Assembly (NCBI GenBank): GCA_040389865.1 | Contig: JAZJZM010000019.1 | Coordinates: forward strand, 17,423 to 81,422 | Source: Bacteroidota bacterium | GTDB taxonomy: Bacteria; Bacteroidota; Bacteroidia; 2-12-FULL-35-15 | Reading direction: 5' to 3' | Length of the DNA: 64,000 bases | In this document: one piece after another, positions 1,629-10,600 of the stretch | Position numbering within the stretch: the first letter of the stretch is position 1 | Layout: every line of letters begins with the position of its first letter | The notes under the pieces: model-generated | What the model saw: the letters and a program-made list of their open reading frames with translations, nothing else | What the model was told of the DNA's origin: nothing | The model's database searches: none | Position numbers and translations under genes: made by a program

Positions 1629-4600
1629 TTGAACAAAATTACACGCATTATCATTTACACATTTTCCTTAACTCTCCTTCAATGGATTGGGTTAAGGACT
1701 GATGTATTTGCTCAACAAAATGTGGGTATCGGAACAACAAATCCTCACCCTTCCGCACGTTTAGATATAGCGGGTCCTAATCAGGGTTTGCTTATTCCCC
1801 GCGTATCCCTTGCATCCACTACCGATAATATTACAATTAACAATCCCGCAGTAAGTTTATTAGTATATAATACCAATCCATTGATGATTAATGGTGGATT
1901 GGGAATTTATTATTGGGATGGGACAAAATGGATTCAGGCCTTTGGTCTTTTAGGCTCAACAGGTTCAACAGGTGTAACAGGAATAATTGGTATAACTGGC
2001 GCAACAGGAATTGTAGGTGTAACAGGGATGGGCTCAACTGGTGATACCGGCTCTACTGGCGACACTGGAGCCACTGGTACTACAGGTGATATTGGTGTTA
2101 CAGGTTCTACTGGCAGAACGGGTGCTACAGGCAGAACAGGTGCGACAGGTGCAACGGGTTCAACCGGTGATACAGGTTCAACCGGTGATACAGGTTCAAC
2201 AGGCGATACCGGTTCAACAGGTGTTACAGGAGCAACCGGCAGAACAGGCTCCACAGGTAGAACCGGCTCCACCGGAAGTACAGGTTCAACAGGAGATACC
2301 GGTTCAACAGGAGATACGGGTTCAACGGGTGATACCGGTTCAACAGGAGATACAGGTTCAACAGGCTCAACGGGCTCAACAGGTAGAACCGGTTCAACAG
2401 GCCCAACAGGTAGAACAGGTTCGACAGGTTCAACTGGCAGAACAGGTTCAACAGGTTCAACAGGAGATACAGGTTCAACAGGCGATACAGGTTCAACAGG
2501 TGATACGGGTTCTACGGGTTCCACAGGTTCCACAGGTTTTACAGGTATTACAGGTGTAACCGGTGCTACTGGTTCAACTGGTTCTACAGGTAGGACAGGT
2601 TCCACAGGTTCCACAGGTTTTACAGGTTCCACAGGTTCCACAGGTTCCACAGGTCATACAGGTTCCACGGGTTCCACAGGCTCAACCGGCTCAACTGGTA
2701 CTACCGGTTCAACAGGCAGTACCGGCTCCACCGGCACAACAGGTTCCACTGGCTCAACTGGTTCTACAGGGGCAACTGGTGATGTATATAAAACAACATC
2801 GTCCACTTCAATGAGCATAGCTATGGGAGGGCAATCATTTTTTGTAGGAACAGGTTTAGCATACACTACAGGACAGCCATTAGTTATTGCGAAGGATTCT
2901 TTAAATAGAATGAGTGGAATTGTTAGTACTTATAACCCGGTAACAGGATTTATGACTGTTAGTATAGCATCAGTGCTTGGTGGTCCTGGGCCTTTCTCCT
3001 CTTGGGCGGTTAACGTTAATGGTGTTCAGGGTATTGTTGGAGTAACCGGGATGTCCGGTTCTACAGGTTCTACAGGTTCTACTGGTTTTACTGGGGCTGG
3101 GTATATGGCAACTTCAAGCTCTACCCATAATTTTGGTACGGGTTCAACTTTAACTTTTACAACTCAGTCTGGTTTGGCTTATACTTCAGGGGCACGAGTT
3201 CGTGTATCAAATGCTACAGCTCCTAATGACTATATGGAAGGAATAGTTCTAAATTATGCCGGAACTGGTTTACAGATACTAACGGATTTTTCTTCCGCTG
3301 TTGGTAGTAACAATAATTGGAATATCAATTTGGCTGGTGATAAAGGCAGTGTTGGTACAACTGGAGCTACCGGATCAGGTTATCAGGCAACTTCAGCTTC
3401 AAATCGTACCTTTGGAACTGGTTCAAATTTAACTTTTACAACCCAAACAAATTTGGCTTACACTCCTGGGGCCAGGGTGCGTGTGACAAATGCTACTTCT
3501 CTTAATGACTATATGGAAGGAATTGTTCTAAGTTATGCTGGAACAGCCTTAAATATATTAACGGATTTTTCTTCCGCTGTTGGCAGTAACAATAACTGGA
3601 ATATTAATTTGGCTGGTGATAAAGGTGTTGGTAGTACTGGTGCTACAAGCAATACAGGTTCAACAGGTTCAACCGGTTCAATTGGTTTTACTGGATATAC
3701 TGGTTCCACAGGTTCAACCGGTTCCACAGGTTCAACCGGAGTTACCGGCTCTACTGGTTCCACAGGTTCCACTGGCGCAACAGGCAGAACAGGCTCCACA
3801 GGTTCTACAGGCTCTACTGGTTCCACCGGTTCTACCGGTTCAACCGGTGATACAGGTTCCACAGGTTCCACCGGTTCAACAGGCTCCACCGGTTCAATTG
3901 GTATTACTGGATCTACAGGTTCAACAGGATTCACAGGGGCTGGATATATGGCCACTTCAAATACAAACTTAACTTTTGGTACGGGTTCATTTTTAAATTT
4001 TACAACCCAGTCTGGTCTCGCATATACTGCTGGAGCAAGGGTAAGAGTAACCAAACTTGGCTTTGTTAATGAATATATGGAAGGTGTGGTTCAAAGTTAT
4101 GTTGGTACATCGCTGATCATATTAACTGACTTTTCCTCAGGAGTTGGAAATAATAATGCCTGGAATATTAATATTGCTGGTGATAAAGGGGGAATTGGTG
4201 TAACTGGAGCTACAGGCTCTGGGTATAAGGCAAGTTCAGTTACACCTGTAACTTTTGGATCGAGTTCATTCTTATCATTTCAAACACAGTCAGGTCTCGC
4301 ATATTCTGCAGGGGCTAGAGTTCGAGTGACCAAAGTTGGCTTTGTTAATGAATATATGGAAGGAATTGTTCTAAATTATAGTGGAACAACATTGGATATA
4401 CAAACTGATTTTTCTTCAGGCATTGGTCTTAATAGTAGCTGGAACATCAATTTAGCTGGTGATAAAGGTACATTTGGTATTACTGGCTCTACAAGTAATA
4501 CTGGTTCGACAGGTTCGACAGGCTCAACAGGCTCGACAGGTTCAACTGGTTCAACTGGTTCCACAGGTTCAACTGGTTCAACAGGCTCAACAGGCTCTAC

Positions 4601-7600: not shown

Positions 7601-10600
7601 TTCTACCGGCTCAACTGGTTCGACAGGTTCGACAGGTTCTACCGGCTCAACGGGAGCGACTGGTGCAGGGTATCAGGCAACTTCTGTTACACCTCATAAT
7701 TTTACTTCCATTGGTATTTTATCTTTTCAAACCCAATCAGGTCTGGCTTATACTGCTGGAGCAAGAGTGCGTGTATCGGATGCCTCAGCTCCGAGTAACT
7801 ACATGGAAGGTATAGTTGTGAGTTATGCTGGAACAACTTTACAAATAAATATGGATTTTTCTTCCGCTGTGGGTGGTCCTATTGCCAATTGGAATATCAA
7901 TTTGGCGGGTGATAAAGGTACAATTGGTACAACAGGCGGTACCGGTGCTGGATATAAGGCAACTTCGACATCATCCTTTAATTTTGGTACTGGTTTAAAT
8001 TTAACATTTATAACACAGACCAATCTGGCTTACTCTGCCGGGGCCAGAGTTCGTGTAACAAATGCTTCTGCTATTAATGACTATATGGAAGGAATAGTTG
8101 TAACATATGCTGGAACAAACTTGCAAATTTTTACGGATTATTCATCGGCTGTAGGTGGTCCTATTGCTAATTGGAATATAAATTTAGCTGGTGATAAGGG
8201 TGTTGGTAGTACAGGTTCTACTGGTTTCTCCGGCTCTACAGGTTCAACCGGGTCAACAGGCTCCACTGGCGCAACAGGATCAACTGGATCAACAGGATCA
8301 ACAGGATCAACAGGATCAACAGGTTCGACTGGCGCAACAGGGTCCTCAGGATCAACAGGTTCAACCGGATCAACAGGTTCGACAGGATCAACCGGATCAA
8401 CAGGTTCAACAGGTTCGACTGGCGCAACGGGATCAACAGGTTCGACAGGATCAACGGGATCAACGGGATCAACAGGTTCGACTGGTTCGACAGGTTCGAC
8501 TGGCGCAACCGGTTCAACCGGCTCAACCGGTAGCACTGGCTCAACTGGCTCAACCGGTAGTACTGGCTCAACCGGTTCGACTGGCTCAACCGGCTCAACT
8601 GGTTCAACTGGTAGGACAGGTTCAACCGGTTCAACGGGCTCTACAGGTTCCACTGGCGATACAGGTTCGACTGGTTCCACAGGTTCCACAGGTTCCACAG
8701 GTTCCACAGGATCAACAGGCTCAACAGGTTCAACTGGTAGGACAGGTTCAACAGGTTCAACAGGTTCGACAGGTTCAACAGGTTCAACTGGCGATACCGG
8801 TTCAACTGGTGGTACCGGTTCAACTGGATCTACGGGTACAACGGGTACAACGGGTTCTACTGGTTCAACAGGAAGGACTGGCTCCACAGGTTCAACTGGT
8901 TCCACAGGTTCAACTGGTTCAACTGGTTCAACTGGTTCAACTGGTTCCACAGGTTCCACAGGTTCAACTGGTGATACAGGTTCCACAGGTTCCACAGGTT
9001 CTACTGGTTCAACTGGATCGACAGGTTCCACCGGTAAAACAGGTTTTACCGGTTCAACAGGCAGGACTGGTTCAACAGGAGACACAGGTTCTACAGGCGA
9101 CACAGGATCAACTGGTGATACGGGTTCCACCGGTTCAACTGGTGCAACAGGCAGGACAGGTTCCACAGGTTCAACAGGTAGGACAGGCTCAACGGGTTCA
9201 ACGGGTGATACAGGTTCAACCGGTAATACAGGTTTCACGGGAGATACGGGTTCAACGGGTTCTACAGGATTTACGGGTTCTACAGGTAGAACTGGTTCCA
9301 CAGGTTCAACCGGAAGAACTGGTTCAACAGGTACAACGGGTTCCACCGGTGATACGGGATCAACAGGTGATACAGGTTCCACCGGTTCAACAGGTTCTAC
9401 CGGTTCAACAGGAAGAACTGGTTCAACCGGATCCACCGGCTCAACTGGTAGAACCGGCTCAACGGGTTCAACAGGTGATACAGGTTCAACCGGCTCAACC
9501 GGAGATATTGGCTCAACCGGTTCTACAGGGTCAACCGGTAGAACAGGTGCGACCGGTTCAACGGGTAGGACGGGCTCAACGGGTTCAACAGGTGATACAG
9601 GTTCAACCGGCTCAACTGGAGATATTGGCTCAACCGGTTCTACAGGGTCAACAGGTAGAACAGGTTCAACCGGTTCAACTGGTTCAACCGGTTCGACCGG
9701 CTCAACAGGTTCGACCGGCTCGACCGGCTCGACCGGCTCAACCGGTGATACGGGATCAACAGGCGCCACCGGCTCAACAGGTGCTACTGGTAGGACCGGT
9801 TCAACTGGTTCCACAGGCAAAACTGGTTCCACAGGCGACACGGGTTCCACAGGAGATACTGGTTCCACCGGCTCCACTGGCTCCACCGGGACAACCGGCT
9901 CAACTGGCTCAACGGGTAGAACAGGTTCAACAGGATCGACAGGTTCAACAGGTTCAACAGGTTCCACCGGCTCAACCGGCTCAACCGGCTCAACAGGTTC
10001 TACCGGTTCGACAGGTTCTACCGGCTCAACAGGTTCTACCAGTTCAACTGGTTCAACTGGTTCAACTGGTTCAACAGGTTCAACAGGTTCCACCGGCTCG
10101 ACAGGTTCAACAGGTTCAACTGGTTCGACAGGTTCAACCGGTTCAATAGGATCAACTGGTTCAACTGGTCTAACAGGTGCTGACGGAGCATTAAATGCCT
10201 GGGCATTATTAGGAAATGCCGGAACCAATCCAGCTACTAATTATATTGGAACTATTGACGCACAGGATTTGGTTGTAAGGACAAATGCAGTTGAAAAATT
10301 CAGAATAACCACTTCCGGGCAGTTTTTAGCCAATAATTTTGGAAATGCAGGTACCCCAATATTTAGTTTCAGGGCTAATTCAAACACCGGAATTTTTAGC
10401 CCGGCATTTAACAGCCTTGGCTTTTCAACCAATGGAATAGAAAACATGAGTATTAATAGTGTTGGAACGGTGCGATTAAATGCCTACCCTGATGGTTTTG
10501 TAAGATCTACTTTAACAAATGGTACATTGTCCAGCTCAGGAGGTCCGGTTAATTTACTTACCGAGGTTACCGGCATTTTACCAATAGCAAACGGTGGAAC

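Follow-up and report, generated by a model that had tools for sequence, protein, structure and literature searches.

A predicted beta-barrel module common in phage collagen-like tail fibres interrupts the rod of a giant collagen-like protein from a Bacteroidia bacterium

A collagen-like giant fibre of 3,892 aa is encoded as a single open reading frame in the window (the whole 64,000-nucleotide stretch of Bacteroidia DNA analysed here), and its rod is interrupted by ten non-collagen inserts of 78-79 residues each. Judging from sequence comparisons, the inserts all belong to one domain family of ~80 residues with two subtypes. This family supplies a common, uncurated shaft module to phage collagen-like tail fibres and to related proteins across many phyla. 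We give a probability of roughly 0.55 to the reading that they are structural bead modules of a trimeric, tail-fibre-derived fibre, segmenting and registering a degenerate (GST)n helix. Overall, this is a worthwhile uncurated domain family and not a new kind of system.

Results

Ten inserts in one giant fibre protein

We delimited the inserts by parsing runs of at least five G-x-y triplets, leaving short trailing Gly-to-Ser breaks uncounted. Of the ten, two are A units and the remaining eight are B units arranged as four pairs; together they follow one another along the rod as A, BB, BB, BB, A, BB (Table 1). The original prediction, made from the sequence alone, had described these ten inserts, with the B units in adjacent pairs, as globular domains set between Gly triplets. 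Its ranges proved accurate to within a few codons, its class A and class B consensus motifs were correct, and the insertion of real domains between triplets was confirmed by the parsing. When a family profile was searched against the six-frame translation of the window, it recovered these ten copies alone, with i-E values from 1e-25 to 1e-31. Profile matches in 5,932 other proteins, together with the layout of an orthologue, indicate that the insert repeats are not chance.

Table 1. Features of the fibre gene, in window coordinates.
Feature	Position	Strand	Evidence or description
Giant collagen-like fibre gene	1629..13307	+	signal-peptide-like N-terminus, ~105-aa N-terminal domain, 635 G-X-T triplets, ten barrel inserts, 938-aa non-collagen C-terminal region
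N-terminal leader and ~80-aa conserved head domain ([27 protein letters not shown])	1629..1943	+	
Barrel unit A1 (subtype A, 78 aa)	2787..3020	+	profile i-E 1.5e-25; 74/78 identical to orthologue; dN/dS 0.08
Barrel unit B1a (subtype B), modelled unit	3102..3335	+	AlphaFold2 pLDDT 95.2, pTM 0.83, six strands; dN/dS 0.19
Barrel unit B1b, five triplets past B1a	3381..3614	+	pair model; dN/dS 0.15
Barrel unit B2a	3945..4178	+	triplet parsing, profile; dN/dS 0.11
Barrel unit B2b	4224..4457	+	triplet parsing, profile; dN/dS 0.04
Barrel unit B3a	6015..6248	+	triplet parsing, profile
Barrel unit B3b	6294..6527	+	triplet parsing, profile
Barrel unit A2 (subtype A)	7194..7427	+	profile i-E 8.5e-26
Barrel unit B4a (79 aa)	7671..7907	+	triplet parsing, profile
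Barrel unit B4b	7953..8189	+	triplet parsing, profile
Non-collagen C-terminal region	10194..13304	+	213-aa tandem duplication and terminal glycine-rich domain

The arrangement had been called a fixed pattern, which holds for order and pairing and fails for spacing. Within every B-B pair the linker is exactly five triplets, whereas the spacers between nodes are irregular (9, 32, 167, 67 and 27 triplets, then 220 triplets to the C-terminal region). A syntenic orthologue from another Bacteroidia MAG keeps A-BB-BB at the same places, including the five-triplet linker within pairs. The irregular spacing, and the occurrence of the same modules in short phage fibres with minimal linkers, would suit evolutionary carry-over from an ancestral short tail fibre of a phage: the barrels would be without function in the giant protein, and what counts would be the expanded collagen and the terminal domains alone. 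We consider this highly improbable, since all five comparable copies are intact, in place and under purifying selection between the two species (dN/dS 0.04-0.19, dS 0.3-0.7), and the pair linker is conserved too.

At the N-terminus, the head domain is common to a paralogue at 61.65 kb and to a homologue (P0013), and it matched nothing in Pfam or NCBIfam searches. At the other end, the tandem duplication (11286-11924 and 11925-12563) is 90% identical between its halves, and the C-terminal 600 aa match two tail fibre families, PHROG 863 (E 2.5e-26) and PHROG 6202 (E 3.7e-10). Both non-collagen parts, the C-terminal region and the barrel module, are homologous to phage tail-fibre families, and we infer that the C-terminal region is phage tail-fibre-like, a candidate for trimerisation and for the distal end. 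Pfam and NCBIfam searches of the last 1,037 aa returned only Gly_rich_2, with no T9SS C-terminal signal (CHU_C or Por_Secre_tail). The upstream neighbour of the fibre gene carries CHU_C. Around the fibre gene lie cellular genes (encoding a PKD/CHU_C protein, FKBP, DUF3352, DUF5723-OmpA, Lcl_C and a metallo-beta-lactamase). None of the neighbouring ORFs scanned was a phage gene, and we therefore class the fibre gene as tail-fibre-derived and not as a phage gene. We assume that the protein is exported and displayed, which would place it on the cell surface.

One family without a curated representative

Sequence identity is 56-80% among B units, 47% between the A units and 27-37% between A and B. 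The two types align end to end (hhalign probability 98.2%, E 3e-14), so what had been proposed as two unrecognised classes is a single family with two uncurated subtypes. The claim that the units belong to no described family has stood: A and B-B units matched no Pfam-A or NCBIfam family even at E<=0.1, no Pfam family covers the repeats in full-length homologues, and the PDB yielded no significant sequence or fold match. The sole library profile to match the B-B pair is PHROG 31840 (E 4e-10, two stretches, around profile positions 875-1018 of 1,321). This profile also matches a tail-fibre-like protein (L014), but it is a whole-protein cluster of unknown function, carries no annotation, and neither delimits nor names the domain.

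A confidently predicted six-stranded barrel

The AlphaFold2 monomer of B1a is a six-stranded beta-barrel, modelled as a stable fold (pLDDT 95; Table 1) that supports independent folding. The same module also occurs in an Rhs/YD-like protein (P0028) without any collagen, which implies that the barrel folds on its own. It is thus confidently predicted to be self-contained and autonomously folding. In the model of a B-B pair, two separate six-stranded barrels keep the strand pattern of the single unit (pTM 0.57); the proposed merging of paired units into a beta-sandwich is not predicted.

The best Foldseek matches in the PDB were the N-terminal beta-barrel domain of F1/V1-ATPase and the B domain of pyruvate kinase (TM 0.5-0.59, E>=0.026, identity 10-20%). 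The ‘crown’ barrels of the ATPase A/B subunits and the pyruvate kinase B domain are likewise six-stranded closed beta-barrels of similar size, and the crown barrels hold their oligomer together by packing side by side in a ring, but the similarity is generic and gives no reason to suppose a common origin or function. SH3-like barrels offer a second comparison. The best PDB sequence match was a NusG KOW domain (E 0.34, non-significant), homologues gave Pfam Tudor and LSM matches with bit scores below the cut-offs, and the module pattern G-x-R-V-R-V ... Y-M-E-G-x-V-x-S-Y recalls KOW and Tudor hairpins. Besides the non-significance of these matches, the module differs in having two extra N-terminal strands and collagen caps.

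A common module of collagen-like tail fibres

A profile search of metagenome proteins retrieved 5,932 50%-identity clusters at E<=1e-3 and 1,447 at E<=1e-10, and family members typically carry 2-11 tandem copies. Two narrow peptide patterns found 77 loci in IMG/VR, and 25 BFVD models match the fold (TM 0.71-0.91), annotated as collagen repeat or tail fiber. Most family members carry the annotation “collagen triple helix repeat” or “tail fiber”. Individual cases agree: one homologous gene (P0018) comes after tape-measure and Phage-tail_3 genes, gp035 of Aphanizomenon phage CL131 has two barrel copies with collagen triplets between them, and the L014 protein matches many PHROG tail-fibre families, most of these matches falling on its collagen stretches. 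The barrel was found in tailed phages, Bacteroidota, Acidobacteriota, Actinomycetota (Thermoleophilia) and a prophage-like tail gene cluster, and probably also occurs in giant-virus-like proteins. The possibility that the units are peculiar to the window protein or to Bacteroidota was rejected, as they recur widely in collagen-like phage tail fibres and in related proteins across many phyla.

Several features fit a trimeric context, the conserved five-triplet pair linker among them. At least two G-x-y triplets flank the barrel on both sides in 322 of 386 instances (83%), and 109 of 136 inter-copy linkers in homologues fall in one three-residue phase, corresponding to 2-10 triplets. These linkers are Pro-rich GPxGxxG collagen whose length changes in steps of three.

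Structural or adhesive modules

The module resides in tail-fibre proteins, whose task is attachment, and many copies occur per chain. The barrels might accordingly be low-affinity ligand-binding modules, for glycans for example, with a trimeric rod displaying 30 of them along a half-micron fibre and gaining avidity. Accessory Ig-like domains on phage structural proteins provide an analogous avidity display. Three loops (columns 13-22, 40-48 and 68-77) differ between pairs over a conserved core and could equally mark a binding surface; T9 (84% of instances) and S10 (97%) are conserved, as is an R-x-R/E group in most subtype-B units. Against this, neither lectin, CBM nor Ig-like folds were among the matches listed (top 50 of each fold search), and the solved structures that come closest are structural barrels without a binding role; the lectin-like sites of the original prediction found no counterpart, and the strand pattern with the best fold matches points to a six-stranded barrel and not a sandwich. 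The purifying selection described above shows no sign of diversification. The most conserved columns are Gly, aromatic or hydrophobic (G3, Y6, LAY30-32, G35, G52, V54, Y57, G73, W79, G85, G88), and the conserved R37, R39 and E51, which co-vary, sit on neighbouring strands (beta3 and beta4), as would suit an intradomain cross-strand salt bridge; subtype A lacks all three. Moreover, the barrels sit in the shaft, and binding at the distal end could fall to the large, separate C-terminal region. An adhesive function as the main role is therefore possible but doubtful in our view, and a weak secondary one is possible alongside a structural role.

A degenerate rod

The rod comprises 635 triplets in 16 runs, the longest of 204 triplets. 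X is Ser in 70% of triplets and Y is Thr in 93%; there are three Pro in total, and the triplets contain no KGE or KGD clamps. The protein thus shows the Gly at every third residue by which bacterial and viral collagen-like proteins are defined. The Pfam scan of the fibre protein covered its N-terminal fragment and non-collagen segments; in the homologue P0013, PF01391 (Collagen) matches strongly (E 3e-66).

The (GST)n tract, a presumed triple helix, could instead be a glycosylated, mucin-like flexible region. The Gly-Ser-Thr tracts would then be disordered, probably O-glycosylated spacers, and the barrels monomeric beads that give some structure or act as protease-resistant stops. The near absence of Pro, the lack of charge clamps, and the autonomous folding of a barrel that also occurs in a non-collagen Rhs-like protein all favour such an arrangement, and slippage of a 9-nt repeat alone would preserve the Gly periodicity. 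We nevertheless judge it distinctly unlikely: Gly periodicity persists through all 635 triplets with just seven single breaks, the homologue linkers are Pro-rich collagen with three-residue length steps, BclA-like G-X-Thr collagens are established triple helices, and the C-terminal region shares homology with phage fibre proteins that are trimeric.

Discussion

The reading we prefer, that of structural beads, starts from a barrel whose ends run straight into Gly-X-Y triplets, a putative ‘collagen-capped barrel’. The window protein would be a chromosomal, secreted, tail-fibre-derived giant fibre in which short collagen connectors have expanded to ~545 nm of (Gly-Ser-Thr)n. If three chains form the rod, each insert would place three barrels at a common level, making an A node a bead of three barrels and a B-B node two stacked layers of three. 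Chains in a (GST)n helix could shift by three residues, or any multiple of three, at no cost, so the beads would be its only unique landmarks; they may delimit helix segments and fix chain register, and may also be stiff or hinge points. Alternatively, the beads could be tolerated passengers and not helpers, because a globular interruption costs triple-helix propagation. More ambitiously, the barrels may be dedicated registration domains, three-chain beads that renucleate and lock the triple helix segment by segment in place of hydroxyproline, Hsp47 and Lys-Glu/Asp clamps, and so a new class common to phage tail fibres and bacterial surface fibres; we advance this extension only tentatively and think it unlikely.

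Globular domains connected by collagen stalks have precedents. EPclA and EPclB, prophage-encoded collagen-like side-tail-fibre proteins of E. coli O157:H7, are trimeric with such an arrangement; in EPclB an internal globular domain, Pf2, lies between two stalks, and PfC trimerises and stabilises the collagen (PMC3368898). The inserts described here have no sequence relation to PfN, Pf2 or PfC and contain no Pfam phage-fibre domains. In addition, the EPcl proteins have a few hundred residues and one to three globular domains, whereas the window protein spreads ten barrels over ~1,900 collagen residues and is encoded by a chromosomal gene.

BclA of the Bacillus exosporium nap and Scl1/Scl2 of Streptococcus are Pro-poor, Thr-rich G-X-T surface triple helices, in which a C1q-like C-terminal domain (BclA) or a V domain (Scl) nucleates and registers the trimer. 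In these proteins the only globular domain is terminal and the rod runs unbroken, whereas the globular units here are internal and repeated, and Pfam and fold searches found no C1q/TNF-like or V-domain match in the window protein. The NC domains of animal non-fibrillar collagens such as FACITs are heterogeneous (TSPN, VWA, FN3, short linkers) and, as folded or non-helical stretches, likewise split the rod into separate helical segments. The likeness drawn to them originally is apt as architectural analogy but not as homology: the fold differs, the inserts have no Pfam match to C1q, NC1, TSPN, VWA, FN3 or similar domains, and all inserts here come from one barrel family of 80 residues whose G-x-y caps are integral.

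If the barrel is merely a passive shaft bead, its description is routine new-domain annotation. The family is abundant (~6,000 50%-identity clusters), but Pfam, NCBIfam and the PDB lack any representative of it. As a result, thousands of tail-fibre and surface-fibre proteins carry no annotation beyond ‘collagen triple helix repeat’ or ‘hypothetical’, and defining the module would better annotate phage receptor-binding and shaft proteins. The literature names as an open question how bacterial collagens of such great length fold and remain folded (PMC11923368). Because it folds confidently in silico, the module is a candidate experimental handle on the in-register folding of Pro-poor bacterial and viral collagens hundreds of nm long, and it could become a designable ‘node’ for recombinant bacterial collagen biomaterials.

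One barrel family in two subtypes

The giant collagen-like fibre is encoded by an intact ORF of 3,892 amino acids, in which a signal-peptide-like leader and a head domain of ~80 residues are followed by 635 Gly-X-Y triplets and a 938-residue non-collagen region. Ten inserts of 78-79 residues interrupt the rod, at positions that agree with the original prediction to within a few codons. Searching a six-frame translation of the 64 kb with the family profile recovered exactly these ten copies, and none elsewhere in the window. Along the rod, the nodes follow the order A, BB, BB, BB, A, BB, and the two members of every B-B pair are joined by five triplets without exception. 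Between nodes, the collagen spacers vary irregularly from 9 to 220 triplets, such that the fixed pattern that had been proposed is real in order and pairing but not in spacing.

Features of the window, in window coordinates
Feature	Position	Strand
PKD-domain protein with CHU_C signal (true start may be further upstream)	30-761	+
Giant fibre ORF	1629..13307	+
Region of raised GC	2000-10200	
Subtype A unit, first (core)	2787-3020	+
Subtype B pair 1	3102-3335/3381-3614	+
Subtype B pair 2	3945-4178/4224-4457	+
Subtype B pair 3	6015-6248/6294-6527	+
Subtype A unit, second (core)	7194-7427	+
Subtype B pair 4	7671-7907/7953-8189	+
Single Gly-to-Ser/Ala breaks (codons)	3648, 4494, 5844, 6564, 6717, 7122, 10041	
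Spurious ORF (example)	8138-10228	-
213-aa tandem duplication	11286-11924/11925-12563	+
Terminal glycine-rich domain	12750-13304	+
Small Lcl_C protein	21743-22291	+
Hybrid sensor kinases, adjoining	37272-40676 and 41434-46944	+
Collagen-like paralogue, running off the window end	61654-64000	+

The ten units could be aligned over their entire length, with 16 invariant columns. Sequence identity is 56-80% between B units, 47% between the two A units, and 27-37% between A and B; members of the same B-B pair are slightly closer (66-80%) than same-position copies of different pairs (56-74%). The inserts had initially been divided into two separate classes. This division was not sustained: a subtype A profile, comprising the window copies and five copies from the homologue P0013, aligned with the subtype B profile over 84 of 88 columns (hhalign probability 98.2%, E 3e-14), identifying A and B as one family. 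The main contrast between the subtypes is G-A-R-V-R-V / Y-M-E-G in B versus G-Q-x-L-x-I / x-M-x-G in A.

An uncurated but widespread domain

As originally supposed, the inserts match no curated family. Neither the A nor the B-B units had a match in Pfam-A or NCBIfam even at E<=1, and PDB sequence searches with profiles of either alignment yielded best E-values of 0.28-0.34, the top one, a NusG KOW domain, being not significant. Their sole library match, at E 4e-10, was PHROG 31840, a cluster of phage proteins that spans 1,321 positions and has no known function. In eight full-length homologues, a Pfam scan detected only Collagen, Gly_rich_2, PKD_6, and fn3 outside the barrel repeats, and sub-threshold Tudor and LSM within them. 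The module is nowhere described in the literature searched, in which a catalogue of eCIS fibres mentions collagen shafts without these barrels.

The domain is nevertheless far from rare. Word-index protein searches with two family alignments were insensitive (10 and 2 matches, mostly fragments), and the size of the family emerged when 1.84 billion cluster representatives were searched exhaustively with the profile: 5,932 proteins passed E<=1e-3, of which 1,447 passed E<=1e-10 and 128 passed E<=1e-30. Ten homologues that were looked up individually all proved to be metagenomic, two of them bearing the label "hypothetical protein". The top 150 homologues carry between two and ten or more copies per protein, with a period of ~86-95 residues. 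The strict [12 protein letters not shown] motif occurs in few reference genomes, including Bacteroidia, Chitinophagaceae, Acidobacteriota, Bryobacterales, and Thermoleophilia MAGs.

Predicted fold

An AlphaFold2 model of B1a, the first unit of the first B-B pair, was based on an alignment of 91 instances below 50% identity and is all-beta, with a mean pLDDT of 95.2, a pTM of 0.83, and six strands (residues 8-10, 21-25, 37-42, 45-58, 61-69, and 78-82). A Foldseek comparison of models of one A unit and one B-B pair had originally been suggested as a check; applied here to one B unit and one B-B pair, it gave no significant PDB match. For B1a, no structure reached E<=1e-3; the best matches (TM 0.5-0.59, 10-20% identity) were to the B domain of pyruvate kinase and to the beta-barrel at the N-terminus of V/F-type ATPase A/B subunits, a generic similarity among small closed barrels. 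The model of the B1a-B1b pair (57 aligned pairs; pLDDT 94.6, pTM 0.57), likewise with no significant match among PDB structures, shows this six-strand arrangement in each of its two halves, which are joined by an extended linker, and points to each unit being an autonomous barrel. Fusion of a pair into one beta-sandwich, as originally envisaged, is not predicted, and nothing lectin-like appeared among the fold matches listed.

Homologues in phage tail fibres

The homologues include viral proteins. The 1,256-aa "hypothetical" protein gp035 of Aphanizomenon phage CL131 has two barrel copies with collagen triplets between them, and its gene sits among other large ORFs, with the gene for the major capsid protein following a few genes downstream. 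P0018, a homologue with four copies, is encoded directly downstream of genes for tail completion, major tail, tail chaperone, tape-measure, and Phage-tail_3 proteins, which is the position of a tail fibre. In IMG/VR, two narrow peptide patterns alone recovered 77 distinct loci; at one of these viral loci, a 1,390-aa module-bearing protein is encoded a few genes after a major head protein gene and matches many PHROG tail-fibre families, largely via its collagen stretches. Among the predicted viral structures of BFVD, 25 matched the barrel model at E<=1e-3 (best TM 0.84-0.91, RMSD about 1-2 Å), with annotations such as "Collagen triple helix repeat", "Tail fiber protein", and "Glycine-rich domain-containing protein". 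Two further homologues, P0034 and P0074, are collagen-rich and resemble giant-virus proteins.

The barrel also occurs as a mobile module outside collagen contexts, as shown by P0028, a metagenomic protein of 5,124 aa with nine tandem copies at residues ~869-1561 and no collagen; by eye, it was judged to be Rhs/YD-repeat-like with a Hint-like C-terminal part. Its copies comprise the core of the barrel and lack both the collagen caps and the G-x-G-Y segment at the N-terminus. Collagen runs are essentially absent from 16 of the 149 top homologues.

Sequence constraints on function

A syntenic orthologue of the giant fibre is present in the MAG "Bacteroidia bacterium E10_metabat.bin.7" (~79% nucleotide identity) and keeps the A-BB-BB layout and the five-triplet pair linkers, which marks the source of the window as a related member of the Bacteroidia. 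Five orthologous barrel copies are 85-97% identical, with dN/dS of 0.04-0.19 at dS of 0.3-0.7, and are thus under purifying selection. Such conservation of barrel positions contradicts the idea that the barrels are inherited baggage, which we consider improbable. An assembly artefact or pseudogene was rejected, given the intact ORF and the same layout in the orthologue under purifying selection.

Across 401 instances, the best-conserved columns are Gly, aromatic, and hydrophobic (G3, Y6, L30-A31-Y32, G35, M50, G52, V54, Y57, G73, W79, G85, and G88); T9-S10 is also highly conserved, and R37, R39, and E51 are found in most instances. The latter three lie on adjacent strands, beta3 and beta4, and are coupled in a crude mean-field DCA of these instances, whose top couplings were mostly gap and subtype effects and in which only R37/R39-E51 and columns 65-67 with 85-87 looked meaningful. 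Most simply, R37/R39-E51 would form a surface salt bridge within the domain.

The barrels could alternatively serve as a distributed low-affinity adhesin, a reading supported by the tail-fibre context, the multiple copies per chain, and three variable loops. The low dN/dS, the lack of a lectin-like fold among the matches listed, and the presence of a separate large C-terminal region weigh against this possibility, which we hold to be rather unlikely.

At least two G-x-y triplets are present on both sides of the barrel in 83% of 386 full-length instances, and 109 of 136 linkers between adjacent copies in homologues fall in a single phase of three residues (2-10 triplets, mode 4). Two or three triplets are not enough for a free-standing helix; the Gly retained at every third residue of such linkers is, we infer, best understood if three chains pack along a shared axis from one barrel to the next.

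The giant fibre and its surroundings

The rod is extremely uniform in sequence, with Ser at position X in 70% of triplets, Thr at position Y in 93%, and three prolines in total. A collagen triple helix rises 0.286 nm per residue, and a triple helix over all 635 triplets would thus be ~545 nm long. Seven single Gly-to-Ser/Ala substitutions (…G-A-T-S-N-T-G…) break the rod; three of them come 3-4 triplets after B-B pairs 1-3, a feature also seen after the pairs of the orthologue. These breaks may be hinge points tied to the barrel nodes. The GC content of the collagen gene (0.46-0.53, versus 0.31-0.36 across most of the remaining window) stems from its repeated Gly/Ser/Thr codons and does not count as evidence for transfer. 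Other frames and the opposite strand contain long spurious ORFs.

The last ~600 residues match the tail fibre families PHROG 863 (E 2.5e-26) and PHROG 6202, and the terminal domain matches Pfam Gly_rich_2 (E 1.9e-9). A phage protein in BFVD and the homologue P0015, which has eight barrels, end in the same glycine-rich domain, suggesting a conserved distal module of this fibre class. The C-terminal region also contains a tandem duplication (192/213 residues identical), each copy of which holds a [16 protein letters not shown] motif echoing the N-terminal head domain.

The near-absence of proline and the predicted autonomous folding of the barrel would also suit non-helical, mucin-like Ser/Thr spacers with monomeric beads. 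However, the Gly periodicity is near-perfect, the collagen linkers of homologues are Pro-rich, and the C-terminus is homologous to trimeric fibres, making such spacers quite unlikely.

A prophage origin of the gene was rejected, its neighbours being ordinary cellular genes: a PKD/CHU_C T9SS protein, FKBP, DUF3352, DUF5723-OmpA, Lcl_C, a metallo-beta-lactamase, and PAS histidine kinases. The CHU_C type IX secretion signal of the upstream PKD-domain protein indicates that the genome uses T9SS, although no T9SS C-terminal signal was found in the giant fibre. We read the latter as a chromosomal, tail-fibre-derived, putatively secreted fibre. Lcl_C, the C-terminal domain of Legionella collagen-like protein, occurs in a small protein encoded 8 kb downstream (E 1.1e-11). 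The adjoining hybrid sensor kinases are both large; in the second, a protein of 1,836 aa, CheB methylesterase and CheR methyltransferase domains are fused to PAS-HisKA-HATPase-receiver modules. A collagen-like paralogue at the window end shares the head domain (…[17 protein letters not shown]…LIPRISL…WYWNGTQW…); the rod differs from that of the giant fibre in that its G-S-T triplets are broken every few triplets by "TSNT" or "TANT" (Ser or Ala for Gly), and no barrel units were found in its visible 2.3 kb.

A proposed structural role

We propose that trimeric fibre shafts are assembled from this "collagen-capped barrel". Typical phage proteins would have barrels alternating with minimal triple-helical staples; in the Bacteroidia protein, the staples would have been enlarged to a half-micron rod, probably via slippage of the 9-nt repeat. 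Since shifts of (GST)n by any multiple of three residues would be nearly isoenergetic, the barrels would be the only unique landmarks. Unable to enter the helix, they would delimit segments, set the register at both segment ends, and provide stiff or hinge points. The identity of the barrel is by itself nearly certain; for identity and structural role taken together, we estimate a probability of roughly 0.55. As a tentative extension, which we rate well below this, the barrels may be nodes dedicated to registering and renucleating ultra-long collagens.

In principle, the giant fibre closely resembles EPclA/B of E. coli prophages, in which collagen stalks are flanked by globular domains, with PfC responsible for trimerising and stabilising the collagen (PMC3368898). 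Collagen-like fibres of phage type with globular interruptions are a known kind of system, to which the giant fibre belongs, and the fold of the barrel is generic. The novelty lies in a delimited domain family, apparently undescribed, that has thousands of members, and in its use ten times in one giant bacterial fibre. The way in which very long prokaryotic collagens with interruptions fold and remain folded is described as an open question, for which Lys-Glu/Asp clamps have been proposed (PMC11923368). Such clamps are absent from the giant fibre rod, whose triplets contain no KGE/KGD motifs. A role of the barrels in setting the register would address this gap in the understanding of how very long prokaryotic collagens fold (PMC11923368).
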